Virus record (IMG/VR): IMGVR_UViG_3300028603_000003
Length of the DNA stretch: 64,000 nt
Source of the DNA: a virus
Lineage: Duplodnaviria; Heunggongvirae; Uroviricota; Caudoviricetes
Direction: 5' to 3' (one strand)
The notes beneath the pieces were generated by a model. The model had not been told where the DNA came from. It worked only from the letters and a program-made list of their open reading frames with translations, and did no database searches. The translations under genes were made by a program, and so were the position numbers. This document shows positions 9,417 through 59,811 of this stretch, piece after piece (the stretch's first letter is position 1; each line of letters starts with the position of its first letter).

Positions 9417-10408
9417 TCACACAAAAACTAAAACAAGACATTGTAGCGATTCTAGAAAACAAATTTGAAGAAGACGTTAGCGTTAGAAAGGTCGCAGTAG
9501 AAAAGTCTGACCAACTGATGAAGAAATTCGATACTCCCGAAGGAACCTATTGGTTTTATCAGAAAAGGAATCTTAGGTCTAACGACAAAGACAAGATTTA
9601 CTACTTGTTGGATAATCGTGGAAATTCTATTAAGACTTGGAAGAACTCCGATCTAGACTCTATAAAGAACGATTTGAAGAAGCTTCTTCGTTTGTCTGAA
9701 GAGGTCTTGGACGAAGACTTTCGCAGTATGGCTATCGGTGCAGCCGGTCTTGGTCTTGGGGCAATCGGTGCCTATCAAATGATGGACAAAGAACCTCCGA
9801 AAGAACCGACACCGCAAGTAAGGCAGGTTCAGCAAGGGGATATCAAGAAGCCGGAACTCAAAGCCCCTGTAGCCAAGAAAAATGTGCTATCTGGAGCAAT
9901 TGATTCTCTGTCTGAGATGGAGAAATACTTCGTAAAGAAAGCAATTCAAAACGGGATCGAAGGCGTCGAGCTAGTGGCGTTCTTGGCACAAGTCGCCCAC
10001 GAGACAGGAAATTTTTCTTCTATGGTTGAACAAGGTCCGAAGAAATACTTTAGAAGATACGAACCAAAATGGAATCCTCAAACCGCCAAGATTCTCGGCA
10101 ACGTCAAACCCGGAGATGGTGAAAGATTTAAAGGAAGATCATTTGTTCAACTAACGGGTAGAGATAACTACCGAAGAGCGGGACAAGCACTTGGACTTCC
10201 ACTAGAACAAAAGCCACATCTATTAGAGAATCCTTCAGTTGGATTCAAGGCTTCTTTGTGGTATTGGAACACTAGAGTTAAATCTAAGACAAACAACTTC
10301 GAAGATATTGAACAAGTCACCAAACTAATCAACGGTGGGTTGAACGGGTTGGAAGATAGAAAGCGAAAATTCGAAAAGTACCTGTCACTACTAGAACCTT
10401 CTAAGTAG
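9380..10408 (+). CDS. glycoside hydrolase family 19 endolysin (chitinase-like lysozyme)
   Basis: GH19 catalytic signatures FLAQVAHETGNF and GRSFVQLTGRDNYRRAGQALGL...KASLWYW. N-terminal hydrophobic stretch MAIGAAGLGLGAIGAY. The true start may be internal. Confidence 0.75.
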   Translation: MGSATTTRNTTVITQKLKQDIVAILENKFEEDVSVRKVAVEKSDQLMKKFDTPEGTYWFYQKRNLRSNDKDKIYYLLDNRGNSIKTWKNSDLDSIKNDLKKLLRLSEEVLDEDFRSMAIGAAGLGLGAIGAYQMMDKEPPKEPTPQVRQVQQGDIKKPELKAPVAKKNVLSGAIDSLSEMEKYFVKKAIQNGIEGVELVAFLAQVAHETGNFSSMVEQGPKKYFRRYEPKWNPQTAKILGNVKPGDGERFKGRSFVQLTGRDNYRRAGQALGLPLEQKPHLLENPSVGFKASLWYWNTRVKSKTNNFEDIEQVTKLINGGLNGLEDRKRKFEKYLSLLEPSK

Positions 10409-15500: not shown

Positions 15501-16820
15501 ATGCGCGTGGTAAATGAAGTAAAAATGTCTCCGTCCGTTTTCTCTAAAGGTCTAGTTACCGCTGGAGACAAGGGAGTTCTTATCGGATTTGAGTTTGAGG
15601 TTGGAGTTCCTTTGGATAACCAAGATGAACTCAACATTACCTCTTCTCGATGGACATATCTAAAAAGTATCCAAGAATTTCTGTCGTGGATCAAGGCTTC
15701 CGCAGACAGCGTAAGCGAGGACGTTGAGTTCGAAATCTCCGACGATTACACAAAGTGGGCCAAACAAAAGACAAAAGACTTTTTGGAGTCTCTTAGTGAA
15801 GATGGTTTGGACAAGCTAACATCTTTGTACGATGAAGTCTATGACAAACACTCATTGGTCAATATGACAAAGTTCGTAACATTGGGTGCGTCTACTGAAC
15901 TTCAAGCTAGACTGGCTGACTTTCTTGAGCTTAGTGAGTATGAAGAAACTGACGACTACCTTCTATTCATGGATCACATTGACGAAGTTACTAGATCGAA
16001 GCTAAACTCATTTGTTTCCGATTCCTATGGAAACATTGCTGGACTGTTTAAGAAATTTGGATTGAAATATTCGCCACAAGAAAAAGACGTTGACGATAGG
16101 TATCACTTGATTAAGAATTCTGTTAGGGATGTGACTCAAGCCGAGATTGCCAAGACACAAGTTCACGTCATTGACATCGCAAAGACAATTACAAAGAACC
16201 TCACAGACTGGTATATCGAACCAGACACAACGATTAGGCCGGACGACAAATTCAATTATACTGGAGCAGAAGTTGTCAGTCCTCCGCTTAAACCAAATGA
16301 AGCCATGGCAGCACTTGATTCATTCTATGCAGCATCCAAAAAACATGGATGGGTAACAAACAAATCAACCGGACTACACATCAACGTTTCTATTCCAGCC
16401 AAGATTGATGTTTTAAAGCTAACACTATTTTTGGGTGACAAGTATGTGTTGAAGTCATTTGGTAGAGAAGGTTCTGCGATGGCTCGCTCTGTTCTAGATG
16501 ATCTAGAGAAGGGAGCAGCGTTAGATAGCATTGTTGGTCTGACACCGGATAATATCAAGCGTCTTTCTCTGTCGGCAAAATACTTCGCAGATAACCACTA
16601 CGCATCTATTAGCTACGAAACAAACGTAGACACATTGAAAAAGAACAAGTATATCTCTTTCAGGCATGCTGGAGGGGACTACTTAAACGAGATGCAGAAG
16701 ATTAGAGATACGATTGGTAGGTTCGTTACAGCCATGATTATCGCTGCCGATCCAAATGCTTACAAAGAAGAGTACATGAAGAAACTTTATAAACTCGCAT
16801 CACCAAAGTCCGCTGAATAA
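15501..16820 (+). CDS. putative amidoligase-like protein, paralog 2
   Basis: GFEFEV, TGLHINVS and IAADPNAYKEEYMKKLYK motifs shared with ORF 6393..8264. Confidence 0.4.
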   Translation: MRVVNEVKMSPSVFSKGLVTAGDKGVLIGFEFEVGVPLDNQDELNITSSRWTYLKSIQEFLSWIKASADSVSEDVEFEISDDYTKWAKQKTKDFLESLSEDGLDKLTSLYDEVYDKHSLVNMTKFVTLGASTELQARLADFLELSEYEETDDYLLFMDHIDEVTRSKLNSFVSDSYGNIAGLFKKFGLKYSPQEKDVDDRYHLIKNSVRDVTQAEIAKTQVHVIDIAKTITKNLTDWYIEPDTTIRPDDKFNYTGAEVVSPPLKPNEAMAALDSFYAASKKHGWVTNKSTGLHINVSIPAKIDVLKLTLFLGDKYVLKSFGREGSAMARSVLDDLEKGAALDSIVGLTPDNIKRLSLSAKYFADNHYASISYETNVDTLKKNKYISFRHAGGDYLNEMQKIRDTIGRFVTAMIIAADPNAYKEEYMKKLYKLASPKSAE

Positions 16821-16866
16821 TTTTACCTAAATAGGTATAAACAAACCTTTTATAACAGGATACAAA

Positions 16867-17547
16867 ATGGATCGTCAAACACAAACCAGAGTATACGACG
16901 CGATTGCTCAGGTTCTGACCAATCAAGGCAGAATCAAAGAAGCAGTAGAAAGCGTGGTGTCAGAGAGAACTGACAAGTCAGGTCGTGACCTCTCTCAAGT
17001 AGAGTCAATGGAACGCTGGCTAAAGCCACTTAAAGAGCTTCTAGAAAGTTCGGTGTCGCCTAACGCTAAGCAACAGTTCATTCGTGAATACACAATGTGG
17101 GTTCGCTCTTTCGGACAGTTCTACTCAGCAGCAATCAAATCAAACCCCGGACTCGCAGAAGTATTCGGCACACTTGAAGATGCATTCAACATCCAAGTGA
17201 AAATCCAAAATGGAAAGACCACGAAGAACGCAAAGGATGTCAGAAAAGAATCTGTGATCAAGGAAGCAGAAGGCGACTCAGACGAGTTTGTTGACACTTT
17301 CATTGACATGATTCAAAAGATTCCTAGCTCTTCATTGAAGTCTCGTTTTGCATATCAGTTCGAGCGTTGGAAAAGAGAAAACCCAACTGAGGTTGCTCAA
17401 CTCGAAAGAAACTCACCCACTATTAATTCTTTCCTAGATAAAATTCTAACTACCATTAACCCAGATATCGACCAAGATGTTGCGGACACTGAAGTTCCTG
17501 CTGACGAAGTCGATGCAAATTCAGAAGTGCAAAACAAAGGAGTATAA
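16867..17547 (+). CDS. hypothetical protein
   Basis: ORF only. Confidence 0.45.
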   Translation: MDRQTQTRVYDAIAQVLTNQGRIKEAVESVVSERTDKSGRDLSQVESMERWLKPLKELLESSVSPNAKQQFIREYTMWVRSFGQFYSAAIKSNPGLAEVFGTLEDAFNIQVKIQNGKTTKNAKDVRKESVIKEAEGDSDEFVDTFIDMIQKIPSSSLKSRFAYQFERWKRENPTEVAQLERNSPTINSFLDKILTTINPDIDQDVADTEVPADEVDANSEVQNKGV

Positions 17548-17552
17548 CAAAA

Positions 17553-18056
17553 ATGTCAGCATGGACAAGAACCACACCCCCAACATGGTTTAGCACCGCA
17601 GTTGTCGGAAAAATGGGATGGGAAAATCCCACTACCGGAGAACTTTTGGTAGCAATCTCAAACCTACAAGCAAAGAACGCAGACGAAGTTGATCCAGTAA
17701 CAATCGTTGCAGTTACAGCAAATAACGAGCCTCTAGTTACTGGCGATTCACTGGTTGTAGTTGTACAGTTCAGCGAAGCAGTTGCCGTAATTGGAAGCCC
17801 AGAAATCGCTTTGACTGTTGGTGCAGAATCTCGGGTACTACAATTTGACTCTGCCAATTCTACGGCAACCCATGTCGCATTTAGCTACACTGTAGTTGAA
17901 GATGACGTAGCTGCGGCAGGGACAATTTCTGTGGACACTTCGATTGATCTCACAAACGGTGGAGTGTATGACATTCTTCCGGGCGGAGCACTAAGCCCAG
18001 TTGCGGCACCAATCACTTTCGTCGCACCCACAACGGCCCTAGTTTCTTTTAACTAA
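17553..18056 (+). CDS. hypothetical T/S/V-rich beta-type protein
   Basis: ORF with composition typical of Ig-like/structural accessory domains. Confidence 0.4.
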   Translation: MSAWTRTTPPTWFSTAVVGKMGWENPTTGELLVAISNLQAKNADEVDPVTIVAVTANNEPLVTGDSLVVVVQFSEAVAVIGSPEIALTVGAESRVLQFDSANSTATHVAFSYTVVEDDVAAAGTISVDTSIDLTNGGVYDILPGGALSPVAAPITFVAPTTALVSFN

Positions 18057-18070
18057 AATAAGAGTTTATA

Positions 18071-18532
18071 ATGTCTGGTCAGGTAAAATTTTCTTCAATG
18101 CCAGTGGCCCTATCCGTAAATGCGTCGGATAGGGTTCCACTACTCGTTCCTACAAGCAGCCATCAGAATCAAACAATCACAATTGAAAATTTGTTTGATG
18201 CTGTATCTGTGCCTGTAAGATTTACTGGACCTTTTGTTCATCAACAGGCACCAGACATTGTAAATTCAACTTCTGTTATTTCTCCAACTAGCAAATATGT
18301 TAGTTTGGAAAACTCAAGCGCGGCAGCGATCAATGTTAATCTAACTTCCGGCGTCGAAGGTCAAGAGGTTACATTCATTGCAAAGACTTTGACTTCTGAT
18401 GTTTACGTTTTTCCGGTTCAAAAAATTGGCTTCACTTCAATCAGATTTGCGTCTGTTGGCGCAACCGCAACACTAATATTCATTGGCTCGAATTGGGTAG
18501 TAAAGTCATATTACAATGCGATCATTAGTTGA
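18071..18532 (+). CDS. hypothetical S/T/V-rich protein
   Basis: ORF only. Confidence 0.4.
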   Translation: MSGQVKFSSMPVALSVNASDRVPLLVPTSSHQNQTITIENLFDAVSVPVRFTGPFVHQQAPDIVNSTSVISPTSKYVSLENSSAAAINVNLTSGVEGQEVTFIAKTLTSDVYVFPVQKIGFTSIRFASVGATATLIFIGSNWVVKSYYNAIIS

Positions 18533-18878
18533 TTATTACGATTCGGAATCCTACGTCGAGTTAGCCAAATTGGCATATGAGAGTCCCGAAACAAAAACAA
18601 TTGATGAATTTGTAGAAGACTTTTCTAGGTTTAAGTATGTCAAGAGGCTCATAAATAGGTATACAGAAACAGGAGAAGTCAAGGTTCAATTGATTTTGAA
18701 TCATTTGATTTTGATTTTCAATGTATTCCAAAAGGACGCTGCGGTTTATATATTAGTTGACAACAACAAAGAATCTGGACAAAAGGCACTAAAAACTTTT
18801 CTTTATTTTCTAAATCAGGTTGAAGTTTGCTACTCCGAACTGGACGACAAAATACTAAAAGAGTTAAACTCAATATGA
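18516..18878 (+). CDS. hypothetical protein
   Basis: ORF overlapping the upstream stop. Confidence 0.4.
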   Translation: MRSLVDYYDSESYVELAKLAYESPETKTIDEFVEDFSRFKYVKRLINRYTETGEVKVQLILNHLILIFNVFQKDAAVYILVDNNKESGQKALKTFLYFLNQVEVCYSELDDKILKELNSI

Positions 18879-19079
18879 GCACTAAAGATAATCTTGAAGA
18901 AGATGGCGAAGGCGGCGTTCCGACAGTCACAACATCTGCTATAGATTCTTCAACTCCGAGAATATACAAGAAAGATGCTAAACGATACAAAAGAAAAACG
19001 AAGCAGGCTTTCAAGGATTTCTACAAGGCTTCTAAAGGTAGCTAACTACTTCTTTGACCGATTAGCAGAAGCGAGCACA

Positions 19080-19268
19080 ATGCGAGCGATTGTTGTGTTG
19101 GGCGCAACAGCCGCAGGTTACACTTTAGACCAAGCCAACATAGAGCATTACATTGTAGTGGGAATTCTTGTGGCACAAACAATCGCTCTGTTGATACCAG
19201 ACAAAGTAGAAACCCACCACAAGGAAACGAAAGATGTTGATTCCGACTCTGGCATTGATAAAGAGTAA
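19080..19268 (+). CDS. small membrane protein (holin-like candidate)
   Basis: 63 aa with two hydrophobic segments, immediately upstream of the spanin pair. Start chosen at an internal Met of track ORF 18975..19268. Confidence 0.25.
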   Translation: MRAIVVLGATAAGYTLDQANIEHYIVVGILVAQTIALLIPDKVETHHKETKDVDSDSGIDKE

Positions 19269-19680
19269 CGCAAAGATATTTTTGACTCTTGCTGTAGTTG
19301 TGGGTATAGTTGGCAGTACAATGAAACTCACTCACGACTACACCAAAAACAAAGTTTCTAAAGTCTACATTGAAGAAATAGCCACTCTTAAAGAACTAGA
19401 AAACGAAAGAATCCGAGAACTAAACAAGAACTTGTTCGCGCAAATGCAAGCCAACAATATTCTTGTTAAAGAAAAACAAGAGTTTACGGTCAAAAATAAA
19501 AACTTACAGAAAGAACTGACTAGAGAAAGAGAGAAGCTTAAAAATGATTCGGAAAATTCTAAGTGGCTTTCTACTCCTATTCCCCCTGCTATCATTGACT
19601 GGTTGCAGTCTAGTGGAACCCAAACCAGAGATTCAAACGATAGTGATCAAACAGTATCCTCCCGAGGAACTTCTGAATGA
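19234..19680 (+). CDS. i-spanin (Rz-like)
   Basis: N-terminal TM helix IFLTLAVVVGIVGST, then a long coiled-coil periplasmic domain. Overlaps the downstream lipoprotein ORF in another frame. Confidence 0.5.
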   Translation: MLIPTLALIKSNAKIFLTLAVVVGIVGSTMKLTHDYTKNKVSKVYIEEIATLKELENERIRELNKNLFAQMQANNILVKEKQEFTVKNKNLQKELTREREKLKNDSENSKWLSTPIPPAIIDWLQSSGTQTRDSNDSDQTVSSRGTSE

Positions 19681-19834
19681 TTGTGTCGCGGAAGAAGTAG
19701 AATATTCAACAAATGAAAGTCTTTTGATTCAGAAACAAAACTTAGAGTCCGCTCTAGCACTCTGCAACCAAGATAAATTACTAATAAGAAAATGGAAAGA
19801 AGATGCACCAATCTCACCACAGAATTTCAGATGA
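19544..19834 (+). CDS. o-spanin (Rz1-like outer-membrane lipoprotein)
   Basis: Signal peptide plus lipobox LSLTGC, Pro-rich mature part. Start lies inside the i-spanin gene (overlapped architecture). Confidence 0.5.
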   Translation: MIRKILSGFLLLFPLLSLTGCSLVEPKPEIQTIVIKQYPPEELLNDCVAEEVEYSTNESLLIQKQNLESALALCNQDKLLIRKWKEDAPISPQNFR

Positions 19835-20210
19835 AGATGTAGTACACTCTATAGAACAAATGCTAGCAAGTGAGTCTGATCCAGAAACTCGAATGAGATT
19901 GTTGGTTCTTTATCGCATATCCGTTCTTCTAGTTGACACCATACACATCACACAGCTTACTCGAACAGAAGTAAAAGACCTCCAAACCGAAGTGTCTACT
20001 CACATCAAAGAACAAGAGCATATGGCTAACAGGATTCTTGGTGGGGCAAAGGTTATCGCAGTGGTGTTCTTGGCAATTCAAGGCGTGTTTGGCTACGTCG
20101 CCACAAAGGTGCTAGAGCAACACCAACAAAATACAATAGAAATTCACAAACTTGTTGACAACGTAAAGAAACTAGAGACAGAATTTTATACCATCAAAAA
20201 TAGCCGGTAA
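19803..20210 (+). CDS. hypothetical protein with C-terminal hydrophobic segment
   Basis: ORF. VIAVVFLAIQGVFGYV looks like a TM segment. Confidence 0.3.
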   Translation: MHQSHHRISDEDVVHSIEQMLASESDPETRMRLLVLYRISVLLVDTIHITQLTRTEVKDLQTEVSTHIKEQEHMANRILGGAKVIAVVFLAIQGVFGYVATKVLEQHQQNTIEIHKLVDNVKKLETEFYTIKNSR

Positions 20211-20228
20211 TAACAAAAACAAAAAATT

Positions 20229-20275
20229 TTGACTCTTCTTAGAGGGAGTGTGTAGAATATACACATTCCCTTTTT
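20229..20275 (+). promoter_or_regulatory. sigma70-like promoter (TTGACT..TAGAAT) overlapping a hairpin plus T-run
   Basis: TTGACT-N18-TAGAAT. Imperfect inverted repeat gggagtgtgt/acacattccc followed by tttttcttttt. Precedes the primase gene. Confidence 0.4.
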
Positions 20276-20279
20276 CTTT

Positions 20280-21314
20280 TTGGCGGTAGACTTTACTATG
20301 TTGTTCATTGATAAAAAATATGTAAGCATAATCTCTTCCAAGTTCGACGGATTCAAATGGAAGTCTTCGGATGTTGCCAACTGTCGATGCCCTCTTTGTG
20401 GAGACTCCAAAACCAAGAAGACCAAGAAAAGAGGCTATTGGTATCCTCGTGGAGACTCCTACTGGTACTCGTGCCACAATTGCGGACAGAACCAATCCCT
20501 CAGAAACTTTCTGAAGAGTTTTGACTATCCAACTTACGAAGATTATAATTTAGAGACATATAAAGAATCTTCTGGCTTCTATACTCAAAAGCCCCAAGAG
20601 CAGAAAGCGCACACCCCCCCAGAACTAATGGCATCTGCCCTAGCCCAATCAAAAATTTCCCCATACATAAACACCAAAAAGCTCTTGTCTCTCAGGGAAG
20701 ATCACCCCGCATATCAGTACGTGATCAGTAGAAAGATTCCGATTGACAGGCTAGCAGAATTCTACTATACACCAAAGTTTTTTAAGTGGGCTTCGGAGTG
20801 GAAAGAACAGTTCGAAGATATAAAACACGACCACCCAAGATTGATCATTCCCTTTAGGGACAAGTTAGGCAACGACATTGGGTTTTCTGCCAGATGTTTC
20901 GGCGATGAGCCAAACAAATACATAATGATCAAATTTGATTCTGACAGCACGGACAGGTTACAATATGGACTAGATCGAGTAAATCTATCAGATACGGTTT
21001 ATTGTGTTGAAGGTCCAGTAGATTCGATGTTTGTCAATAACTGTGTAGCCTCTTGTAATGCTGCACTTCATACAGTTGACATCGCAGACATCTTGATATA
21101 TGACAATCAACCAAGAAACAAAGAAGTGGTTGACATGATTAGTCGAGGCATTGATTCTGGCAAGGGTGTAGTCATATGGCCTGAGAGCTTCAAATACAAA
21201 GACATTAATCAAGCAGTTGTGTCTGGCGAAGAAGACATTCAAACACTGATAGACGAAAACACTTACTATGGTCTTGAGCTTAAGCTTAAATTTACACAAT
21301 GGAAAAAACTTTAG
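20280..21314 (+). CDS. 61: DNA primase gp61
   Basis: N-terminal zinc ribbon CRCPLCGDSKTKKTKKRGYWY...CHNC, very similar to T4 gp61 (CPVCGDSKTDQNKARGWYY). Toprim-like VYCVEGPVDSMF. TTG at 20280 or ATG at 20298. Confidence 0.85.
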   Translation: MAVDFTMLFIDKKYVSIISSKFDGFKWKSSDVANCRCPLCGDSKTKKTKKRGYWYPRGDSYWYSCHNCGQNQSLRNFLKSFDYPTYEDYNLETYKESSGFYTQKPQEQKAHTPPELMASALAQSKISPYINTKKLLSLREDHPAYQYVISRKIPIDRLAEFYYTPKFFKWASEWKEQFEDIKHDHPRLIIPFRDKLGNDIGFSARCFGDEPNKYIMIKFDSDSTDRLQYGLDRVNLSDTVYCVEGPVDSMFVNNCVASCNAALHTVDIADILIYDNQPRNKEVVDMISRGIDSGKGVVIWPESFKYKDINQAVVSGEEDIQTLIDENTYYGLELKLKFTQWKKL

Positions 21315-21322
21315 GAGAAAGA

Positions 21323-22237
21323 ATGGCAAACCCAACAGCAAAAATTCTAGCAGATAGCATTTCACCACAAGGAAAGCGAATCACGACTTTTGAAATTACA
21401 CTTCCCAAATGCCTTCTAGCAGAATACAACACACACGCACTAGTTGCTCGAAACTTTTCAAGCGCCCGAGCAATCCCCGTTAACAGAAACGTAGAGATTG
21501 AATCTTTCTATCCTATCAGGTGGGGAAAGAATCAGGCGGGGATGGTTGCAAAGGATGAGGACATCGATGATGTAACTGCCGCTCAAGACATTTGGTCGCA
21601 GGCAATCGAGTCTGCAAAGCAATACTCCAAGGCGCTGAATGAACTCCAACTACACAAGCAGTGGAGCAATCGCCTAAACGACTGGCACACCATGGCGAAG
21701 GGTGTGACAACAGCAACCGAATTCGAAAACTTCTTCTGGCTTCGAGATGCAGAGGACGCACAACCCGAAATTGCTGAGTTGGCTCGTCAGATGAAGAATC
21801 TCCGGGAAGAAAATGAACCTACGCTGTTGTATCCCGGTGAATGGCATCTTCCATACATCACAACATATCGAGGCGAGTATTGTGAATGGTCAGACTACAT
21901 TGACCCTCTAAGTGGAGAGTCGCTGTCACTAGAAACCGCCAGAACCGTTTCTATGGCCCGTTGTGCAGCAGTATCATACCGAACAGAAGATATCGGCTTG
22001 GAGAAGGCACAGGACATTTATACAAAGCTTTTCAGCGGTCAGAAGGTACACGCTTCACCCGCAATGCACCAAGCAACTCCAATGGAAGACTTGCCAACAA
22101 TCACAAAGAAGCTAGAGTATATGTTCGAAACCGAAGGGGTAACTCACCTAGATCGTTTTGGGGCACTGTGGTCTGGCAATCTTCAAGGCTGGATTCAATA
22201 TCGACAACTTCTACCTAATCACTACAAGCGAGGCTAA
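21323..22237 (+). CDS. hypothetical protein with weak ThyX-like motif remnant
   Basis: Strong RBS aggagaaaga before ATG 21323. TFEITLPK...YNTHALVARNFSSARA aligns loosely to the ThyX RHR-x7-S-x-RY region (Ser and second Arg kept, both RHR arginines replaced). Speculative. Confidence 0.3.
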   Translation: MANPTAKILADSISPQGKRITTFEITLPKCLLAEYNTHALVARNFSSARAIPVNRNVEIESFYPIRWGKNQAGMVAKDEDIDDVTAAQDIWSQAIESAKQYSKALNELQLHKQWSNRLNDWHTMAKGVTTATEFENFFWLRDAEDAQPEIAELARQMKNLREENEPTLLYPGEWHLPYITTYRGEYCEWSDYIDPLSGESLSLETARTVSMARCAAVSYRTEDIGLEKAQDIYTKLFSGQKVHASPAMHQATPMEDLPTITKKLEYMFETEGVTHLDRFGALWSGNLQGWIQYRQLLPNHYKRG

Positions 22238-22238
22238 C

Positions 22239-22499
22239 ATGAAAGAAGATTTGCAAAGCCCTCTAGACCTTAGATACACTGTGTTCAAGCATTCTGATCT
22301 TGAGTGTCTGACTGATACTGAATATCAAATTTTGCTGACTCTTTATGACAAAGTCAACGAGCACCGAGCGGCAAACAACAAGCGCCCCTTATTTGGGGTG
22401 TTTGTTAATCGGGATTGGGGTTGCTTTGACGATGTTGCAAAAATTTTAACCAAATACATTAATGAACAAGAAGGAAGTAAGAATGACAAAGCCAGTTAA
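22239..22499 (+). CDS. hypothetical protein
   Basis: ORF only. Confidence 0.35.
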   Translation: MKEDLQSPLDLRYTVFKHSDLECLTDTEYQILLTLYDKVNEHRAANNKRPLFGVFVNRDWGCFDDVAKILTKYINEQEGSKNDKAS

Positions 22500-22884
22500 C
22501 TCTCTAAACTGTGGTAGCTCTGTATGGGACTTCATGCAGGCATGTGCCCAACAAACAAACGATGTTCCTACCGAGTGTTGGGAGTCTCAAGGATTCTCAA
22601 TCTACAAGAAGCTGGTAGAAGAAGAGTTTGACGAAGTTATGGAAGCGATTGAGAACAGGGACATTAAGAATCTAACTCAAGAGCTAGTTGACCTGATCGT
22701 GGTTTCTCTTGGTCTAGCACACACAATGGGGCTTCCCATGCAAGCAATGTGGGATGAAGTTGCGCGAGCTAATGCATCGAAGGTCGATCCGGTAACTGGA
22801 AAGGTTACTCGTCGAGAAGACGGCAAGATTCTTAAAGGTCCATCATTTGTTCCTGTTAGTTTGGATAGAGTCTTCGAAAAGTAA
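22483..22884 (+). CDS. MazG-like nucleoside triphosphate pyrophosphohydrolase
   Basis: EEFDEVMEAIEN and ELVDLIVVSLGLAH motifs (EExxE/D metal-binding helix pair) typical of MazG/HisE-like all-alpha NTP-PPases. T4 gp56 dCTPase belongs to this fold. Confidence 0.65.
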   Translation: MTKPVNSLNCGSSVWDFMQACAQQTNDVPTECWESQGFSIYKKLVEEEFDEVMEAIENRDIKNLTQELVDLIVVSLGLAHTMGLPMQAMWDEVARANASKVDPVTGKVTRREDGKILKGPSFVPVSLDRVFEK

Positions 22885-22905
22885 AAATAAAACGACTAAA
22901 TACTA

Positions 22906-22936
22906 ATCCCGACTTGTAGCTTGGTCGGGATTTTCA
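22906..22936 (+). terminator. rho-independent terminator
   Basis: atcccgac..gtcgggat hairpin followed by tttt. Confidence 0.5.
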
Positions 22937-22958
22937 TTAATAACATTCGAGGAAAGAA

Positions 22959-25900
22959 ATGAGCGTTATCCCATTGCAGGAAACCTCCCAAGAAATTTGG
23001 GAGAAAAAGTATAGGCTATTAGATGATCATCGTAACCCAGTTGACAAGGACATTTCAGACACATACGACCGAGTAGCTTCTGCGCTGGCAAAGGTAGAAT
23101 CAGACTACGAATATTGGAAAGAACAATTCAAATACGCTTTAGAGAATGGGGCAACTCCTGCTGGCCGCATTCTGTCTAACGCAGGAGCAGAACAGTACAA
23201 GCCCGCAACCAGCTTGATTAACTGTTTGGCAGGTGACACTCCAGTTGTTACTCGCAGCGGCATCTTACCAATCAGAGAACTTGTCGGTAAGGATGTGGAG
23301 ATTCTTAATGGTAACGGACAATGGACAGTTGCACCATTCAAAAGCTTTGGAGAGCAAGAAACATTCAAAGTAACTCTTCGTTGGGGAGACAATAAGCTAA
23401 CAAAGACTGAAATTTTTGCAACAAAGGACCATCGTTGGTTTCTAAGTGATGGTCGAGTTGTGACCACTGAATTTTGGATGACTGGCGGACTTTCGAACAA
23501 GACAAGAACAATCCCACATTTATTCATCCCCAAAGAGAAATTTGTACAAAGCGAATGGGATTCCGGTTTTATCCATGGCCTTGTCTATGGGGACGGTTCT
23601 GACATTTCTACTCCTAACACATATTACTTGAACCTTTGTGGTGAAAAGCAAGAACTAGTTGGCAAAGTAAAAAGCATTCTTGGACTGTCGCCTTCCGTCT
23701 ATGAGGAATCACAAACCTCTCGGTTCACTCTTAAGAGCGAGGCTAATCTAAAAGAAGTCCCTTATGACTACACTTACAGTTATTTGCGGGGCTTCATCGC
23801 GGGGGTTTTAGCCACAGACGGCAGCGTAACCAAAAACAGCAAAGGCTGTTATATTGCGCTTTATGGAAAGAAAGAGCTAGTAGACTTTATTCTTGGCAAT
23901 TCGATATATTGTGGTATCATGCCAACTCATTCTCGCAAGAGCGCGGGGCGAGGTCAGATCACAAATTTTGGTATTCGAAAACAAGACCTTTGGATGGTAG
24001 CACTGCACCCAACTACAATTGAAGAGTCAGACATTATTAGAACAGCACACTCTGCCAATTTCAAGAAGACTGTTAACGGTGAAGCTAAAGTTAACAAGTG
24101 GACAGTGGAAAGCGTGTCGCTTGATCCTGTAGTGCAAGAAGTTTTTTGTTGCCACGAATACGAAACCACAGCATTCGCAATTGCTAATGGTATGAAGACC
24201 GGACAGTGCACGGTATCCGAAATCATCGAAGATTCGATGTATGGAATTCTGCATTCTACGCTTCAATCTGGCCTCACATTGAAGGCGGGCTGCGGCATTG
24301 GATACGAGTTTTCAACCCTACGCCCAAAAGATGCATTCGTTCGCGGTGCGGGGGCAACCACTTCTGGCCCCCTGCCTTTTATGGATATCTTCGACAAGAC
24401 TTGCTTTACAGTAAGCAGTGCGGGCGGACGTAGGGGTGCGCAAATGGCGACGTTTGCCGTGTGGCACCCCGACGTAGAAGATTTCATCAAGGCTAAACGG
24501 GAAGATGGAAGACTTCGACAGTTTAACATGTCTCTACTAATTGATGACGAGTTCATGGAAGCAGTCAAGAACAAGTCAGAGTATAAGCTAGTATTTCCAG
24601 TAAAGAAGACAGAAATTGATTCGGGTCTGGTTACTGGCGAGCTAGTTAAGAAGAAGCTTTTCTGGCAAAAAGAGTATTGTCTATCTCAAGACTATATCAT
24701 CGATGATAACGATCTTATCACATGCATGGTGTACAAGACTGTAAATGCGGGCGACCTATGGTCAACCATCATGCAGTCAACATATGACTTCTCTGAACCC
24801 GGATTCCTTTTGATTGACCGAATCAACGAGCTAAACAATAACTGGTTCTGCGAAAAGATTCGAGCTACAAATCCGTGTGGTTAAATTTACCAGCCTCACG
24901 TTAAAAACTCTGTGAATTCAGGGGAACGCTAGAACAGCCAATCCTGAGCCAAGCCAAGTCGGCGACGATTTGGAAGGTGCAACGACTAGGACATACGAAC
25001 TCTACGAGTTTATGAAGTCTATAGGATCAAGTGATCCGAAGCGCAGAGAACAACATAAATTATGTTGTTATGATATAGTCTGGACTGCATAGGAATATGC
25101 AGAAGTGTAAGATGCGATTCTGCCATAGGAGAATTATGAGAGAATGCGCATCATGTAAAGAGAGCATTCCCATAGAGGAATTTACTTGGAGAGGCGGAGG
25201 TAGAAAGGGTTTGCAATCTACTTGTAAATTCTGCACCTTAGAAAGATTAAGAGAACATCGAGCGTACACTAGACGACTCGTTGGAAGATGGAAACTTAGG
25301 AAAGGGTGTAGTAGGTGTGGGTTCAAGGCTGAGCATTCTTGCCAGCTAGACTTAGACCATATAGACCCAACAACAAAAAATAGTAAGTGTAACGGAAGAG
25401 CGTTTGAACCTTCTTGGAGTGTAAAGAGGATCAAAGAAGAGTTATCTAAATGTGTCGTTCTATGTAAGAACTGCCATGCTCTCAAAACTTACGAAAACAA
25501 AGACTATCTATAAACTTAATCGCATCTTACACTGGCCGGGATTAACGAACCCGGTTGAACATAACGGAACAACCTTTGCCCCCAGAGGGGTCGTGTCTAC
25601 TTGGAAGCGTAAACGTCGCATTTTTCGTTGACAATCCATTTACCCCACAAGCTTCTTTTAATTGGGAAAAGTATAAGAAGGTCGTCAGAATTTTCACCCG
25701 GATGCTTGACAACGTTGTCGAGTTTAATGGGCTTCCACTTGAAGGGCAGCGAAAAGAAATTGAAAGAAAGCGCAGGCACGGCATGGGAATTCTCGGAGTC
25801 GGCAGCGCATTCTCTCTGTTGGGCATTCGTTATGGGAGCAAAGAGTCAGTAGAGCTTGTATCAGAGTGGATGAAGGTCATGGCTGTGACTGGATTTGAAG

Positions 25901-26658
25901 TTGGTATCGAGTTGGCTAAAGAAAAGGGTTGCGCACCAATCTTTAACGAATTCACAGAGATTGACGGAAACTTAGAGAGCAACAAAACTTTGTGGGCCAA
26001 CGGCAAGTACATGCAAAGAATTTGGGAAGTTGCTCCACATCTGAAGGCACAGGCAATTCAACATGGTTGCAGATTTACGCACCACACTTCAATTGCTCCA
26101 ACAGGGACTATTTCGCTGTCAGTCAACAACAATGTGAGCAATGGAATTGAACCTTCTTTCTCTTTGAAATACACCAGAAACGTTATCGAGCAAGGCAAGA
26201 AAACAAAGAGAGCGGTTGATGTTTATAGCTACGAGCTTTTGTTGTATAAACACATTACAGGCTCTGACGAAGCGCCAGATTACTTCAGCACCTCGGACAC
26301 TGTAAAAACCTACGAGCACGTTGACATTCAGGCGGCAGCACAATATTGGTGTGATAGCAGCATTAGCAAGACAATCAACGTGCCCTCCGACATTCCGTTC
26401 GAAGAGTTCAAAGAAGTTTACATTTATGCTTATGAAAAAGGACTGAAGGGTGCCACCACATTCAGGTTTAACCCTGCCGCATTCCAAGGCGTACTTGTAA
26501 AGGAAGATGACTTGGCTAAGACCGAGTATGTTTTCCGGCTGGAAGATGGCTCAGAAGTTGTGGCTAAGGGTAACGATTCAATCGTTTATGACGGAGAGGA
26601 ACACACCGCAGCGAACTTGTTCGATGCGATTAAGGAAGGCTACTATGGCAAGTTTTAA
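22959..26658 (+). CDS. ribonucleotide reductase catalytic subunit, interrupted by an intein (23223..24206) and a group I intron (24882..25566). Exon 1 is 22959..24881 and exon 2 is 25567..26658
   Basis: RNR motifs ILSNAG...SLIN-C, GCGIGYEFSTLRPK, SGPLPFMDIFD, GGRRGAQMATFAVWHPDVEDFI. NPCG at the exon 1 end and EQPLPPEGSCLLGSVNV at the exon 2 start together rebuild the canonical NPCGE...CNLGS[LI]N motif. Class (I versus II) is not resolved. No ATP cone. Confidence 0.85.
23223..24206 (+). mobile_element. intein with LAGLIDADG homing-endonuclease domain inside the RNR gene
   Basis: Starts CLAGDTPVV (block A) and has a TKDH block B. Two LAGLIDADG motifs: GFIHGLVYGDGSD and YLRGFIAGVLATDGSV. Ends ..AFAIANGMKTGQ, followed by +1 Cys. 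Host sequence resumes CTVSEIIEDSM. Confidence 0.75.
24882..25566 (+). mobile_element. group I intron in the RNR gene, carrying an HNH endonuclease ORF
   Basis: Exon 1 ends in U directly after NPCG, followed by an in-frame TAA. Exon 2 starts with GAA (Glu) right after a G at 25566. No RBS or ATG for exon 2. The intron sits in the most conserved codon string. Confidence 0.7.
25097..25513 (+). CDS. intron-encoded HNH homing endonuclease
   Basis: Multiple CxxC pairs plus an HNH core (DLDHIDP...N...CKNCH). Confidence 0.7.
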   Translation: MQKCKMRFCHRRIMRECASCKESIPIEEFTWRGGGRKGLQSTCKFCTLERLREHRAYTRRLVGRWKLRKGCSRCGFKAEHSCQLDLDHIDPTTKNSKCNGRAFEPSWSVKRIKEELSKCVVLCKNCHALKTYENKDYL

Positions 26659-27250
26659 TATTACCAAAAAGATCGTTTCAGTTCATCTAGGAGAGGGCGA
26701 AAAGCCCTCTTCAAAAGACTTTGATGGAGTCATCGTAACCGATGTCAAGCTACCGACAGACGCTCAAGCAAGACTTAAAACATTGAAGGCAGAGGGCAAA
26801 AAGTGGTATCTTACGGTTGCCTATCATCCAGATTCAGAATTGCCCTTTGCGATGTTCTGCCACACCAACCACAAAGAGAAGGGAGCACAAACTTCTGACG
26901 CTGTCACAAGGCTAGTAGCACTGGCTAGGTCAAGCGGAATTTTGGAAGAACACGTCAAGGGTCTTGAAGATAAGATTGACCAAGACAACAACGTGTCGAA
27001 GCTTACCCGAGTAATCAGCATGCTTCTTCGCCACCGAGTCAAGATCGCAAACATTGTAAGAGAGCTTGACAAAATGGAAGACATCTATGTTGGGTCATTT
27101 TTGTTTCAAATCAAGAAGTTTCTATCACAATACATCAAGGACGGCGAAGCTGTAGAGGGCGCGAAGTGTTCTGAATGTGGTAGCACAAACGTTGTATTCT
27201 CTGAGGGATGCAATCGATGTAATGATTGCGGCAGTTCGAAATGCGGGTGA
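26646..27250 (+). CDS. hypothetical protein with C-terminal C4 zinc ribbon
   Basis: RBS aggaagg before ATG 26646. C-terminus CSECGSTNVVFSEGCNRCNDCGSSKCG. The same frame is open further upstream (track ORF begins 26507), overlapping the RNR 3' end. Confidence 0.45.
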
Positions 27251-27253
27251 TAC

Positions 27254-27676
27254 ATGCCCACACTTCGTGAACTAGACCAATGCTACATGGCAGTCGCCCT
27301 CGGCCACGCCAAGCTAAGCAAAGCCAAACGGAAACAGGTTGGGGCTTGCTTGGTGACTTCGAGTGGCATTATAATCCCCGGCTATAACGGAACTCCGAGC
27401 GGGAGTTCGAACGAGTGCGAAGAGTTGATCGACGGGGTTCTTGTAACAAAGCCTGAAGTGATACACGCGGAACTCAACTGTATCTTGAAAGCTGCGCGAG
27501 AAGGGGTTAGTGTTGTTGGCAGTAGGCTATATGTTACACTGTCACCATGTAAGCCATGCGCGGCAATGATCGTGCAGGCAGGAGTCAAAGAAGTCGCCTA
27601 TCTTCAAACCTACAGGTGCACAGGTGGCCTGTCCCTGCTTGTTGATGCTGGAGTTGAAGTCAGGCAGATTGTTTGA
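27254..27676 (+). CDS. cd: dCMP deaminase
   Basis: Zinc-binding cytidine/dCMP deaminase motifs HAELNCI and SPCKPCAAMI. Confidence 0.85.
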   Translation: MPTLRELDQCYMAVALGHAKLSKAKRKQVGACLVTSSGIIIPGYNGTPSGSSNECEELIDGVLVTKPEVIHAELNCILKAAREGVSVVGSRLYVTLSPCKPCAAMIVQAGVKEVAYLQTYRCTGGLSLLVDAGVEVRQIV

Positions 27677-27685
27677 AAATTCTCA

Positions 27686-27723
27686 AAAAGGGGCTTGACG
27701 GCCCCTTTTTCTTTTGGTACAAT
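27686..27723 (+). promoter_or_regulatory. PeSL-like cassette copy 1: terminator-type hairpin whose loop carries the -35 (TTGACG), then a 17-nt spacer and TACAAT
   Basis: aaaaaggggcTTGACGgccccttttttcttttggTACAAT. Identical core at 38796, 44834, 55579 and 59739. Confidence 0.6.
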
Positions 27724-28445
27724 ACTCAAAAATCAAACAGGGAACCAAAAACACGAAAGCGCCGAAACAAATGGTTGATGTGGTTAAGGGATTCCCGAGA
27801 TGCCATCGGACGCCGCAGCGCCGCAGCAGCGGAAGTAACGTTTGTTCTTAGTTAATCTTTTTGGTGGAAGAAAATGCAAGAGAAAAAGTTACATGTTTCT
27901 GACGTGCAACAGTTGTTGCACTTCAACAACAAGTACAACCAGATTAGGAAGTATGTTATGCTTCTGACTCCAAATGGCCCAATGTACTTTCAGCAGAGAT
28001 GGTATGGACAATGAGCGAGCAATCGTGTCTGAGCATTCCTGAAGTGGTTATCGCCGCGATCTTCAAGCGGCACTCCAAAGACTATAACAAAATCAAGAAC
28101 CGCTTTGGTGGGATGACTTCTTTCTACGGAGTCAACTACACTTCCCTCTTGGATTTTTTGGACTCTGAGGGAATTCAATACAAAATTTTTGACGGCTATG
28201 CGGAAACCATTGACTTTAATGGGTGATTGAGATGTTAACTCTGAATAAGATCAACTCCATCGCAAGGGCCAGAAATCCACACTTCTCTTTGTATAAGGGA
28301 GAGGGATACTTCTACCTTGTCTTTGACGACGGAGTTAGGTTCGAAACTTTATCAGTCTGCGTCTATAGAATAAATCACTTGACACTTGAGCAATGGCAAG
28401 ATAGAATAACCGAACTTGAAGACTTGATCAAATCCTGAATTTATT

Positions 28446-28886
28446 ATGCTAGTCTATCGAATTGAAAATGCTTCTGGTGGTGGTATGTATCGCCCAGACG
28501 GACTTTCTTCCTACACTTGTCCATTGGAAGAAATCATGGATGAGTTCCCCGACCCTCACATGTATGAAGAAGCTCTGAGTAATATTTTGGGGCGGGACGA
28601 ATATGACTACAGTTCTATACACGTTTCCCCTGCTGATGACTTTCCGAGGGAAGTTTGGCGATACCTACCTTGCACCGTTCAGTGGGAGTACAGTTTCGCC
28701 TTTCCGACAATTGTCTCACTTCTTTCTTGGGTTTATCTGAAGGAATGGAGAGAAGAGCTTCATCGCAGGGGATTTAAAGTTTCGGTGTATGAAGCGGAAG
28801 CAATCGTTTCGGATTCTGGCGCTCAAGCAATCTTCAAGAAGAAGCACTCCAAGAAAGTTGGTGAGATTTCTTTACTTGAAGTTTAA
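28446..28886 (+). CDS. hypothetical protein
   Basis: ORF only. Three ORFs under 90 aa at 27999..28438 are not listed separately. Confidence 0.4.
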   Translation: MLVYRIENASGGGMYRPDGLSSYTCPLEEIMDEFPDPHMYEEALSNILGRDEYDYSSIHVSPADDFPREVWRYLPCTVQWEYSFAFPTIVSLLSWVYLKEWREELHRRGFKVSVYEAEAIVSDSGAQAIFKKKHSKKVGEISLLEV

Positions 28887-28921
28887 AGTGTTGGATAACT
28901 TAAAATCAATGGGAGTTTGAC

Positions 28922-29230
28922 ATGCCTGTAGGTCCAGAAGTAACGCAAGAAATTGACAAAGCTTGGTTGAATTATGCTTTCGAAGAAATTGACAGAAAGC
29001 TAAAAAGCACAAAGTGGGTTTCCGAACACAGGATGGAATCTATTGATGGAAAAACCCAATGTTGGAAATTCTTGCTGGCCCGAGCCGGGGTTTCTAGCTC
29101 GACAATCGCAGAGCTAGCAGTAGCGTACAAAAAAGTTGGTTGGACTGAGGTACTAACTGAAGTTGTTGAAGAGTCTGGTCGTCCACCTACAGTCTCGGTT
29201 ATTCTTAAATTTGTGGAAAACAAGGAATGA
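28922..29230 (+). CDS. hypothetical protein
   Basis: ORF only. Confidence 0.35.
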   Translation: MPVGPEVTQEIDKAWLNYAFEEIDRKLKSTKWVSEHRMESIDGKTQCWKFLLARAGVSSSTIAELAVAYKKVGWTEVLTEVVEESGRPPTVSVILKFVENKE

Positions 29231-29475
29231 AAATGAAAAACCCTTTGTCTAAACTTACTCTTTGGCTTAAGCGAGACACTACTAGATGGTTCGAACTATT
29301 CTGCTATTTTTGGGTAGCGGGTTGTTTTGTGCTTCTCGCTTACTATAGGCCGGATGTTGTGATTGCGATGCTTTTTTCCGTCATGACCTGTGCTTCTATC
29401 GGAGTTGTATTCTTCAAAGTTATGAAGTATTTGGACTCTAGGATTGGCTCTTCAAAGGGGAGTGAAACGAAATGA
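29227..29475 (+). CDS. small membrane protein
   Basis: Two hydrophobic segments. Confidence 0.35.
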   Translation: MKMKNPLSKLTLWLKRDTTRWFELFCYFWVAGCFVLLAYYRPDVVIAMLFSVMTCASIGVVFFKVMKYLDSRIGSSKGSETK

Positions 29476-29897
29476 ATCTATTTGCTAGTAGCACACCAGA
29501 GTTTATCGATCTTTCCAGAAAGTTCACTGAGCTAAAGATTGAAAACGCAAGGCTGAATGTCGAACTAAAAGAAGAGCGAGAGAAGCACAAGTATGCCGAG
29601 TATGCCGCTCTCGCTGCCGAAGCAGAAGCACGAGATGTGGACACTCTAAACGAGTTACTGAGACAGGCTTACGAAGAATTAGATCACATCAAACAGGTAG
29701 AATTTCCTAGACGAGTCGAGCTTGTCGCAAAAGGCTGGCGGGAAAAGGTATCTAGACTTGAATCCGAACTCGAAGAACTCAAAAAATTGAATCTAGAAGG
29801 CAATACCAAGGTAAGCTGTGTGGTTGAACCTGCATTCGAGTTTAAGTATACCAGAAACATTCTCGAACAGGAGATGAGCAAATACCATGAAGACTGA
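29472..29897 (+). CDS. hypothetical coiled-coil protein
   Basis: ORF with heptad-like charged repeats. Confidence 0.4.
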   Translation: MNLFASSTPEFIDLSRKFTELKIENARLNVELKEEREKHKYAEYAALAAEAEARDVDTLNELLRQAYEELDHIKQVEFPRRVELVAKGWREKVSRLESELEELKKLNLEGNTKVSCVVEPAFEFKYTRNILEQEMSKYHED

Positions 29898-30258
29898 AGA
29901 ACTCGTTTATAACGCAATGTGCAAAGCTTTTAACCTAGGCCAAAGGAATCGGGAATTGTCTTCTTCAGAAGACTTTACTTGGAAAAAGGCAGACGAACTC
30001 ATAGACGAGTTCATTAAGCTTGCAGAAAACACAAAAAAACTGGTTAGCTCCCAAGAAGAAAAACAAGAACCGCAGATTGCTTTGTCTGGTCGGAAATTTT
30101 CTCTTTCGAAAACCGGAGATTTCATCCAAGACGAAAAGTTTGACTTCGACGCTGGCTTTAAGCTTAGCGGAGATTTCGTGTCCGAAGAACAACAGCGAGC
30201 GTATGCCAATATGATTGTCGATGCTCTAAACGAAGCTGCCAAGGGGGCCGCAAAATGA
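29887..30258 (+). CDS. hypothetical protein
   Basis: ORF only. Confidence 0.4.
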   Translation: MKTEELVYNAMCKAFNLGQRNRELSSSEDFTWKKADELIDEFIKLAENTKKLVSSQEEKQEPQIALSGRKFSLSKTGDFIQDEKFDFDAGFKLSGDFVSEEQQRAYANMIVDALNEAAKGAAK

Positions 30259-30518
30259 AAGTAGTTGTCAATAAAGAAGATTGTTTTAAGCCCGTCACGT
30301 TCAACATCACCTGCGAAACTCCAGAAGAGTTGTTTGCACTTTGGTACAGGTTTAACCTCCATTACAATAAGGTGATTTCTAATTCTAAATTTTCTACCAC
30401 AAGGCAGGGAAGGGTTCCAACCGGAATTATAGATGACCGCGTCCCTAATACCTACCCCGTCTTTGATGCCATTAATGAGGTTGTTTGCGAATATTTGGAA
30501 AGTCTTGAGGATAATTGA
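30255..30518 (+). CDS. hypothetical protein
   Basis: ORF only. Confidence 0.35.
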   Translation: MKVVVNKEDCFKPVTFNITCETPEELFALWYRFNLHYNKVISNSKFSTTRQGRVPTGIIDDRVPNTYPVFDAINEVVCEYLESLEDN

Positions 30519-30521
30519 ACT

Positions 30522-30764
30522 ATGGAAAATCAATCAAACAATATCAAAAAAGAAATCGTGCAGACCGCTCTCAATCTGTTAGAATATGATGATGCGTTTC
30601 CCCAAGTTGGTATGGGGATGAACTATCGAACCGCAGTCTTCGAGGCCATTAAAGTCGTCAAGTCACAGGCACTAACATTTGGCTTGACACTTGAAGTGGA
30701 TTCTACTATAATTGACTCTGCTGTGAACGAAGTAGCTGAACAACGATCATACAGAATTCGATAA
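30522..30764 (+). CDS. hypothetical protein
   Basis: ORF only. Confidence 0.35.
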   Translation: MENQSNNIKKEIVQTALNLLEYDDAFPQVGMGMNYRTAVFEAIKVVKSQALTFGLTLEVDSTIIDSAVNEVAEQRSYRIR

Positions 30765-38795: not shown

Positions 38796-38834
38796 AAAAA
38801 GGGGCTTGACGGCCCCTTTTTCTTTTGGTACAAT
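38796..38834 (+). promoter_or_regulatory. PeSL-like cassette copy 2
   Basis: Identical hairpin/-35/spacer/TACAAT, followed by the cctctaCATCAACT leader. Confidence 0.6.
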
Positions 38835-38864
38835 CCTCTACATCAACTCGCAACTGAAACTGAC

Positions 38865-44871: not shown

Positions 44872-44905
44872 CTTCATCGTCAACTAACCAAACGGGGAAA
44901 TTTAA

Positions 44906-59776: not shown

Positions 59777-59811
59777 CCTCTCCATCAACTAGACAAACGA
59801 GGAAACACAAA

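Follow-up and report, generated by a model that had tools for sequence, protein, structure and literature searches.

Positions 22959 to 26658 of the Caudoviricetes virus record IMGVR_UViG_3300028603_000003, analysed here as a window of 64,000 nucleotides (nt), contain a ribonucleotide reductase (RNR) gene, nrdJa, that is interrupted beside two of its active-site Cys codons, and the locus raises the question of how a complete enzyme could be made from such a gene. The analysis indicated that two mobile self-splicing elements, independent of each other, have inserted into nrdJa, namely an intein carrying a LAGLIDADG endonuclease and a group I intron carrying an HNH endonuclease gene, and that the gene very probably remains functional by means of two successive splicing steps.

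The host gene was identified from its profile and structure matches. The open reading frame (ORF) 22959..24884 encodes 641 amino acids (aa) and matched the Pfam RNR all-alpha domain and the first part of the Pfam RNR barrel, while the same-strand frame from 25567, with its stop at 26658, matched the remainder, the two halves adjoining within two profile positions (3–213 and 216–522). In-silico removal of the intein and the intron gave a 676-aa, 76.2-kDa NrdJa, which matched the NCBIfam equivalog TIGR02504 (NrdJ_Z) with 540.6 bits against a cut-off of 399.95, over positions 2–604 of 606 in a single stretch. The solved structure that the spliced product matched best was NrdJ of Thermotoga maritima (E 2.7e-52), with NPCGE placed on NPCGE and the Cys eleven residues past this motif aligned as well. 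The active-site Cys triad was present, as Cys89, Cys312 and Cys323 (mature numbering) aligned with Cys residues known to belong to the active site; Cys312 is that of the thiyl radical, and G313 ends exon 1. Cys89, the first residue after the intein, aligned with the Cys of the LSSC motif of class I NrdA (5im3). The NrdA residue, and hence Cys89, we take to be the partner of the second redox-active Cys. The best phage matches were uninterrupted, that of phiYS40 NrdJ (42% identity) extending over residues 6–675, or 99% of the length, in one tblastn piece. A second intron or intein elsewhere in nrdJa was ruled out, the phiYS40 and TIGR02504 alignments each forming one stretch. Downstream, an nrdJb-like ORF overlaps the nrdJa stop by 14 nt and matched the C-terminal region (613–759) of full-length B12 reductases. 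By these matches the gene is a class II NrdJ, encoded as separate NrdJa and NrdJb. An initial inspection of the letters and their translated frames, referred to below as the sequence-only reading, had described a T4-like nrd gene, and the class II assignment replaces that description; to our knowledge T4 has no class II nrdJ-type gene. Thermus phage phiYS40 likewise encodes its class II reductase as two consecutive ORFs, nrdJ-a and nrdJ-b (split described in PMC3653736), although its nrdJ-a is uninterrupted whereas nrdJa of the window carries an intein and an intron.

The intron was recognised by Rfam model RF00028, which matched positions 24857–25102 with 79.2 bits, above the gathering score of 50, and E 1.8e-18 over model positions 1–253, and was the sole Rfam family found in the window. 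Exon 1 ends with ...AAT CCG TGT GGT, the last T being 24881, and is followed directly by TAA (24870–24884), while the intron tail ends ...AACG and is followed by the exon 2 codons GAA CAA CCT (25563–25575), with the junction in frame. The insertion lies between the codons of G313 and E314, two residues past Cys312. The start of exon 2 has neither a Shine-Dalgarno sequence nor an ATG, and the only in-frame start codon upstream is TTG 25555, within the intron tail. The sequence-only reading had placed a group I intron with an HNH endonuclease between the codons for G and E in NPCG/E (a slash marks the insertion point here and below), with a U ending exon 1, a G ending the intron and an exon 2 that resumes in frame without a ribosome-binding site; these details were borne out by the sequence, by the Rfam match that it had proposed as a check, and by the endonuclease family and the empty allele described below.

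The intron appears to belong to an IA2-like architecture because two hairpins, P7.1 and P7.2, lie between P7 and P3'. In P1 the splice site is marked by a U24881.G24893 wobble, and the U24878.U24896 mismatch is conserved, being retained in all GGT/GAA introns on both of the scaffolds described below; in one relative, L028, a compensatory exon and guide change was found in P1 (CCU.. with ..CAAG). The loop of the long P9.1 stem encloses the HNH ORF together with its ribosome-binding site, and the equivalent stems in four related introns (L019, L022, L028 and L021) have different sequences that are still complementary. The sequence 3' of P9.2 consists of the tail UUGAACAUAACG followed by the terminal G25566. 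P10 was not claimed; about 3 bp could be drawn (GAA with UUU 24886–24888). Covariation was measured over five ORF-deleted introns, those of the window and of the same four relatives, the latter recovered via their HNH proteins. RNAalifold recovered P1, P3, P4, P5, P6/6a, P7.1, P7.2, P8, P9 and P9.2 from this set. Over 13 helices including the P7 pseudoknot, 97.4% of cells were standard pairs, compared with 33–43% when the partners were slid by 1–3 columns, and changes on both sides, which are compensatory, occurred in 35 of the 71 pairs. None of 500 shuffles reached any of the observed measures.

The ORF within the P9.1 loop matched PHROG 2255 with E 6.5e-28, as well as three other HNH PHROGs, and contains the HNH motif DLDHIDP...LCKNCH (DH...N...CH). 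Its start is probably ATG 25136. The sequence-only reading had adopted ATG 25097, the mechanical ORF start that would give 138 aa, and this start was rejected as it falls within the P9 stem; ATG 25112 sits in the P9.1 stem. The 125-aa reading was preferred because 25097 and 25112 are in stems, because the 60 homologues, mostly of 125–140 aa, begin about 13 residues later, their alignment running from residue ~13, and because GGAG precedes 25136. Pfam family PF01844 was recorded for two HNH relatives (P0023 and P0047). The catalytic residues of both the HNH and the LAGLIDADG nuclease are intact.

The intein was identified by its motifs, which comprise Cys1 in CLAGDT, block B as ATKDH (T..H), the LAGLIDADG motifs GLVYGDGS and GVLATDGS, and block F as VFCCHEYE, with C1, T67, H70, D124, D199 and Cys+1 invariant in seven family members. 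A model predicted by AlphaFold2 (predicted local distance difference test 86.6, predicted template-modelling (TM) score 0.86) was matched by Foldseek to PI-SceI (E 3.9e-12, TM score 0.64–0.68), TliVMA, PI-PfuI, mini-inteins and free LAGLIDADG enzymes, and a profile built from the seven members placed inteins on top when run against the PDB sequences (Npu DnaE with E 0.0014, PI-PfuI). The NCBIfam model intein_Nterm scored 23.2 bits, just below its cut-off of 24.5. The sequence-only reading had set a LAGLIDADG intein immediately before the Cys of SLIN/C; the position stood but the residue did not, as the Cys at 23223 is Cys1 of the intein and the host Cys is the +1 residue at 24207. Its sizes for the products, roughly 676 aa for the reductase and about 37 kDa for the intein, agreed with the computed 676 aa and 36.6 kDa.

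The canonical C-terminal His-Asn (blocks G:6 and G:7) is absent from the intein, which ends in Gly-Gln. This TGQ/C end was retained in four relatives of 98–63% identity inserted at the same SLIN/C site, and the more distant members of the family keep the penultimate Gly and have a terminal Asn (TGN/C), these being an archaeal RNR intein at the same site, the intein of a TSCPD/NrdJb-like protein and one other. Splicing is known for inteins with a C-terminal Gln and for inteins that lack the penultimate His, a Cys at block F:4 is documented, and the RNR intein of Chilo iridescent virus (CIV) spliced better with Gln than with Asn (PMC4031507). The Gly-Gln end therefore lowers the canonical status of the element and not its status as an intein, and the element is probably an active, atypical class 1 intein. 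The TSCPD/NrdJb-like protein that carries a member of this family (P0005; 37% identity, TGN/C) is interrupted at ...EIFIN/C, so that the family has colonised both halves of the split reductase, at similar IN/C sequences.

Table 1. Coordinates of the two inserted elements, the parts of the intron and the reductase genes in the window.
Feature	Position	Strand	Description
nrdJa exon 1, N-extein	22959..23222	+	88 aa, ending ...KPATSLIN; Pfam Ribonuc_red_lgN; colinear with uninterrupted homologues
Intein	23223..24206	+	CLAGDT...MKTGQ, 328 aa, 36.6 kDa; Cys1 at 23223, Cys+1 at 24207
nrdJa exon 1, first C-extein part	24207..24881	+	Cys89 to ...ATNPCG; Pfam barrel positions 3-213
Group I intron	24882..25566	+	685 nt, IA2-like; begins with in-frame TAA, ends with G25566; Rfam RF00028
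P1	24874..24900	+	exon strand CGUGUGGU (24874-24881) predicted to pair with internal guide GCCUCACG (24893-24900)
Ribozyme core P3-P9	24908..25102	+	Rfam alignment and covariation; P8 present
P3	24908-24914 with 25042-25048	+	Rfam alignment
P7	24984-24988 with 25076-25080	+	GACUA with UAGUC; sequence invariant among the five introns
P7.1/P7.2	24989-25041	+	between P7 5' and P3'; covarying helices 8-10
P9 hairpin	25085-25102	+	part of core
P9.1	25104..25533	+	16-bp perfect stem (25104-25119 with 25518-25533); RNAduplex -26 kcal/mol
HNH homing-endonuclease ORF	25136..25513	+	125 aa from ATG 25136 (probable start); GGAG 25128-25131
P9.2 hairpin	25536..25554	+	CCGGG-AUUAACGAA-CCCGG, conserved UAACGA loop; compensatory changes in 5 of 8 pairs (helix 13)
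nrdJa exon 2	25567..26658	+	363 aa and stop, starting EQPLPPEGSC (Glu314, Cys323); Pfam barrel positions 216-522
nrdJb-like ORF	26645..27250	+	201 aa; Pfam TSCPD and CxxC...CxxC (zinc-finger) tail; PRK08665 positions 613-759 (NCBIfam)

Naturally empty sites were found for both elements. A Logan contig, L011, with 92–96% DNA identity to window positions 15584–30696 and 94% in the flanks of the intron, joins window position 24880 directly to 25567 and is without exactly the 685-nt intron 24882–25566, its exons being contiguous at this site. In a more distant relative, L001 (66% protein identity), positions 23222 and 24207 are directly adjoined, so that precisely the intein is missing, and the intron is absent as well; a third relative, L006 (58% identity), has no intein at this position, where its sequence is SLVN-CTTGKIVEDS. 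These empty alleles fix the boundaries of both elements independently of the motif reading. The same arrangement as in the window occurs in at least three independent assemblies, and in public assemblies this locus is broken up into three or four separately annotated ORFs. No near-identical DNA was found in the GenBank phage collection; the phage is uncultured and its relatives are known only from metagenome assemblies. No frameshifts or stops were found in nrdJa, and the ratio of nonsynonymous to synonymous substitution rates (dN/dS) against L011 was 0–0.03 in the exteins and 0.10 in the intein, with 0.11 in the endonuclease part of the latter.

From the observed anatomy, boundaries, folds, conservation and presence/absence polymorphism of the elements we infer RNA splicing, protein splicing, DNA cleavage and homing, which would proceed as follows. 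The pre-mRNA would fold into an IA2-like group I ribozyme in which the last eight exon bases pair with the guide to form P1, and free guanosine would attack after U24881. The freed exon end would then attack after G25566, joining GGT to GAA to give the ligated junction CCGUGUGGU/GAACAACC. The TAA that forms the first intron codon would keep ribosomes out of the ribozyme, and the 16-bp P9.1 stem would loop out the HNH gene, so that the 3' splice site is brought beside the core. Translation of the spliced mRNA would give a 1004-aa precursor, in which the class 1 intein is expected to form a thioester at Cys1 and to transfer the N-extein to Cys+1, its release following by cyclisation of Gln, which replaces the usual Asn at the C-terminus. 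The predicted products are a 676-aa NrdJa with Cys89 restored (SLIN-CTVSEIIEDSMYGILHSTLQSGLTLK) and a free 36.6-kDa LAGLIDADG endonuclease. More speculatively, a Cys-rich, Gln-terminal intein placed on a redox-active Cys may make the maturation of the reductase redox-dependent. In mixed infections the LAGLIDADG protein would cut intein-less alleles, the HNH protein would nick or cut intron-less alleles near NPCGE, and recombinational repair would copy the element together with flanking exon sequence into the cut allele.

Comparison of the window with L011 revealed traces that such homing might leave. Synonymous divergence was 0.10–0.14 in the N-extein and intein and 0.30–0.43, about three times higher, in the exon between the intein and the HNH-intron site (24207–24881). 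The 150 nt upstream of an intron site specific to L011 (see below) contained 15 mismatches (binomial p 0.002). The raised synonymous divergence, which was seen in one sequence pair, is consistent with co-conversion from diverged donors. At the empty HNH-intron site, L011 reads CCC TGC GGC/GAA (10774–10782) where the window reads CCG TGT GGT/GAA (24873–24881), so that all three wobble bases differ and the splice-site U is removed; GGT was kept in seven other intron-less alleles. These three adjacent synonymous changes in L011 would abolish P1 pairing and probably cleavage, and this allele may be a homing-resistant target.

Other elements were found at and around these sites in relatives. L011 contains an 859-nt insert (9480–10338) with a LAGLIDADG_2 ORF after GGRRG, corresponding to window position 24437/24438, which matched the group I model weakly (35 bits, E 5e-7), and a clear group I intron (76 bits) was found at the same GGRRG/A site in the more distant relatives L012 (9479–9685) and L013 (3142–3348). 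In L006 (5989–9108) a different, canonical and contiguous intein (...HAHN/C) is inserted at the thiyl Cys, NP/CGE, two codons upstream of the intron site of the window; in RNRs, inteins occupy the thiyl-radical Cys more often than any other site (PMC2677866). An HNH ORF was found between the two RNR barrel halves in ten fetched loci, all within 5 nt of the same site, and for nine of the ten the insertion was mapped with nucleotide precision. The IA2-like intron occupies GGT/GAA in the window, L019, L022 and L028, and TGT/GGC in L021. A second, group I-like scaffold, designated type B, in which the HNH ORF lies upstream of the P7 3' strand, was found at GGT/GAA in L014 and at CCGT/GT, 5 nt upstream, in L015, L020 and L027. 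L029 has the same guide at CCGT, its 3' splice site being unmapped. At each resolved locus the guide matches its own exon and the in-silico junction restores NPC(G/A)EQPLPP, and in the introns inserted 3 or 5 nt upstream (L021, L015 and L020) the guide has been re-targeted. The type B introns were analysed by hand and with RNAalifold only; Rfam gave no hit to those of L014 and L015 even at E 0.1, probably on account of the ORF inside the core.

The members of this HNH family (50–78% identity) occupy the P9.1 loop in the IA2-like introns of the window, L019, L022, L028 and L021, and P8 in the Rfam-negative introns of L014, L015, L020 and L027, and within 5 nt each scaffold is inserted at two or more phosphodiesters, the guide being re-targeted. 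The more distant HNH homologues (L016–L018) lie outside RNR genes in all three cases. That the nrdJ locus is a homing hotspot, as the sequence-only reading had proposed, is well supported by the sequences of the introns 3 and 5 nt away, the intron at GGRRG/A and the intein at NP/C. A more tentative reading, to which we give slightly less than even weight, is that one HNH lineage and two unrelated group I scaffolds continue to enter into associations at the NPCGE codons, with L011 resisting. If this is true, the locus family records the teaming of endonuclease and ribozyme, their sliding, and resistance to them.

Several points weigh against two working splicing elements with active endonucleases. 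Covariation was judged from only five sequences, whose alignment also supplied the structure. P1 includes a U.U mismatch and P10 would be at best 3 bp. Pfam gave no match to the HNH ORF of the window, PF01844 included, and LAGLIDADG_3 scored 19.9 bits in the intein, below its cut-off of 22.5. The intein has neither the terminal Asn nor the penultimate His, and some inteins with such atypical termini splice slowly (PMC4031507). The only close intron-less allele, that of L011, differs at three target wobbles and may not be a substrate, and the activity of all four catalysts, the ribozyme, the intein and the two nucleases, is inferred from sequence. Some of these points would fit a decaying gene, in which the Gly-Gln intein is splicing-defective, nrdJa has become a relic without function and the phage depends on deoxynucleoside triphosphate synthesis by the host, as the missing His-Asn and the slowness of some Gln-terminal inteins (PMC4031507) would suggest and as the degenerating intein-bearing nrdA genes of Campylobacter phages (PMC3653736) illustrate. 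We consider this improbable, since TGQ/C is kept across 63–98% identity with the same penultimate Gly in the TGN/C ends of distant members, the CIV intein prefers Gln over Asn, the gene is free of frameshifts and stops, and the dN/dS values of exteins and intein are low.

Alternatively, the gene might simply be in pieces, with no splicing or with an effectively free-standing HNH gene, the two parts of the reductase being made as separate polypeptides that associate non-covalently; a T4-like phage, Aeromonas phage Aeh1, has such an arrangement, NrdA-a/NrdA-b (PMC3045599, PMC3653736). The in-frame TTG 25555 just upstream of exon 2 could serve such a scheme, and gene callers in public assemblies treat exon 2 as a separate gene. 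However, no Shine-Dalgarno sequence precedes 25555 or 25567, the TTG lies directly 3' of the P9.2 hairpin, and the ribozyme is intact and covarying; moreover, the break falls within the five-residue NPCGE active-site motif, and the junctions in the resolved related loci are exact and in frame despite three different insertion positions, so that separate translation appears very improbable indeed. Both elements might instead splice while one or both endonucleases are inactive here and inheritance is vertical only. The small size of the HNH protein and its lack of recognition by Pfam would agree with this, as would the endonuclease decay that the homing cycle predicts after fixation (PMC2814812) and the distribution of the intein, for which no empty relative was found above 66% protein identity (L001), all closer recovered relatives being intein-bearing. 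On the other hand the catalytic residues of both nucleases are intact, dN/dS in the LAGLIDADG domain is low, the HNH intron is polymorphic in presence at 94% flank identity, and synonymous divergence is raised near intron sites in the way that co-conversion would produce. We therefore regard fossil endonucleases as unlikely, while leaving them some weight, and prefer two mobile elements that splice and probably still home.

The combination of an intron and an intein in one phage reductase gene has a precedent. The nrdE gene (bnrdE) of Bacillus subtilis phage SPbeta is described in PMC3653736, which cites Lazarevic et al. (1998), and in PMC3984707 as holding a group I intron as well as an intein, and so, like nrdJa of the window, it carries both in one gene for an RNR large subunit. 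The SPbeta gene, a class Ib nrdE, belongs to a temperate siphovirus, whereas the phage of the window has a class II nrdJa alongside T4-like replication genes; the two genes also differ in their insertion sites, the intron of the window carries an HNH gene and its intein ends in Gln. The sequence-only reading had considered two different selfish elements with two homing-endonuclease families in one nrd gene unusual. In view of SPbeta the combination is not unprecedented: an intron together with an intein in a phage RNR is already known, and what is mildly unusual is the Gly-Gln terminus and an HNH lineage common to two scaffolds at shifting positions.

Phage nrd genes are a classic location of group I introns that encode homing endonucleases, T4 nrdB and nrdD and Twort nrdE among them (PMC3653736, PMC3984707). 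Those of T4 nrdD (sunY, with I-TevII), T4 nrdB (I-TevIII) and Twort nrdE (I-TwoI) are, as in the window, of group IA type and inserted at conserved codons, with HNH enzymes in nrdB and Twort; they are likened here by description, and they differ from the window in their class I or III host genes, their sites and their endonuclease lineages. The sunY intron has its ORF 3' of the catalytic core, as in the window. Selfish elements are known to favour conserved active-site codons (PMC2814812, PMC2677866), and the NPCGE region is also targeted by RNR inteins at the thiyl Cys and by the NrdJ-1 split intein (Dassa et al., 2009; PMC2677866), but in the window the thiyl site holds an intron after the Gly codon and the intein lies at another active-site Cys, SLIN/C. 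The CIV RNR intein and the PolII intein of Pyrococcus abyssi are class 1 inteins that end in Gln and use Gln cyclisation (PMC4031507), and the intein of the window likewise ends in Gln; unlike them it has Gly where the penultimate His would be, and its block F has Cys-Cys. PI-SceI, PI-PfuI and TliVMA share its two-domain fold of Hint and LAGLIDADG (Foldseek E 4e-12 to 4e-9, query-normalised TM score 0.55–0.68), whereas their identity to it is 9–16%, and the intein of the window is smaller (328 aa) and resides in a different host protein.

The genes near nrdJ are thyX, mazG and a dCMP deaminase gene, and T4-like replication genes, gp32-like, clamp loader and RnlA-like, are also present in the window. 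An element of about 45 nt occurs five times (27686–27730, 38797–38848, 44834–44885, 55580–55612 and 59739–59793), its first copy closing the thyX-mazG-nrdJ-dCMP deaminase block. It has the form AAAAAGGGGC-TTGACG-GCCCCTTTTTCTTTTGGTACAAT, a hairpin resembling an intrinsic terminator whose loop is a -35 box (TTGACG), with a -10 box (TACAAT) 17 nt later, and looks like a combined terminator and promoter at cassette boundaries. Two large proteins with Amidoligase_2 domains and an 804-aa cytidyltransferase-like protein (6393–8264, 15501–16820 and 10446–12860) are possibly involved in nucleotide or DNA modification. A candidate split or invaded DNA polymerase near 55640 was dropped, as it had a PHROG label only and no Pfam support.

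The current understanding of introns, inteins and RNRs is left unchanged by this locus, which represents a fully delimited double parasitism of a gene of essential function, both catalytic Cys residues of a class II reductase being "guarded" by self-splicing elements. It is also useful for correcting gene calls in public assemblies. Close alleles differ in the elements that they bear, with an HNH intron in the window, a LAGLIDADG intron in L011 and a thiyl-Cys intein in L006, and these differing loads would make the locus a convenient system for studying homing, co-conversion and target-site resistance in uncultured phages, as well as the biochemistry of a Gly-Gln intein.

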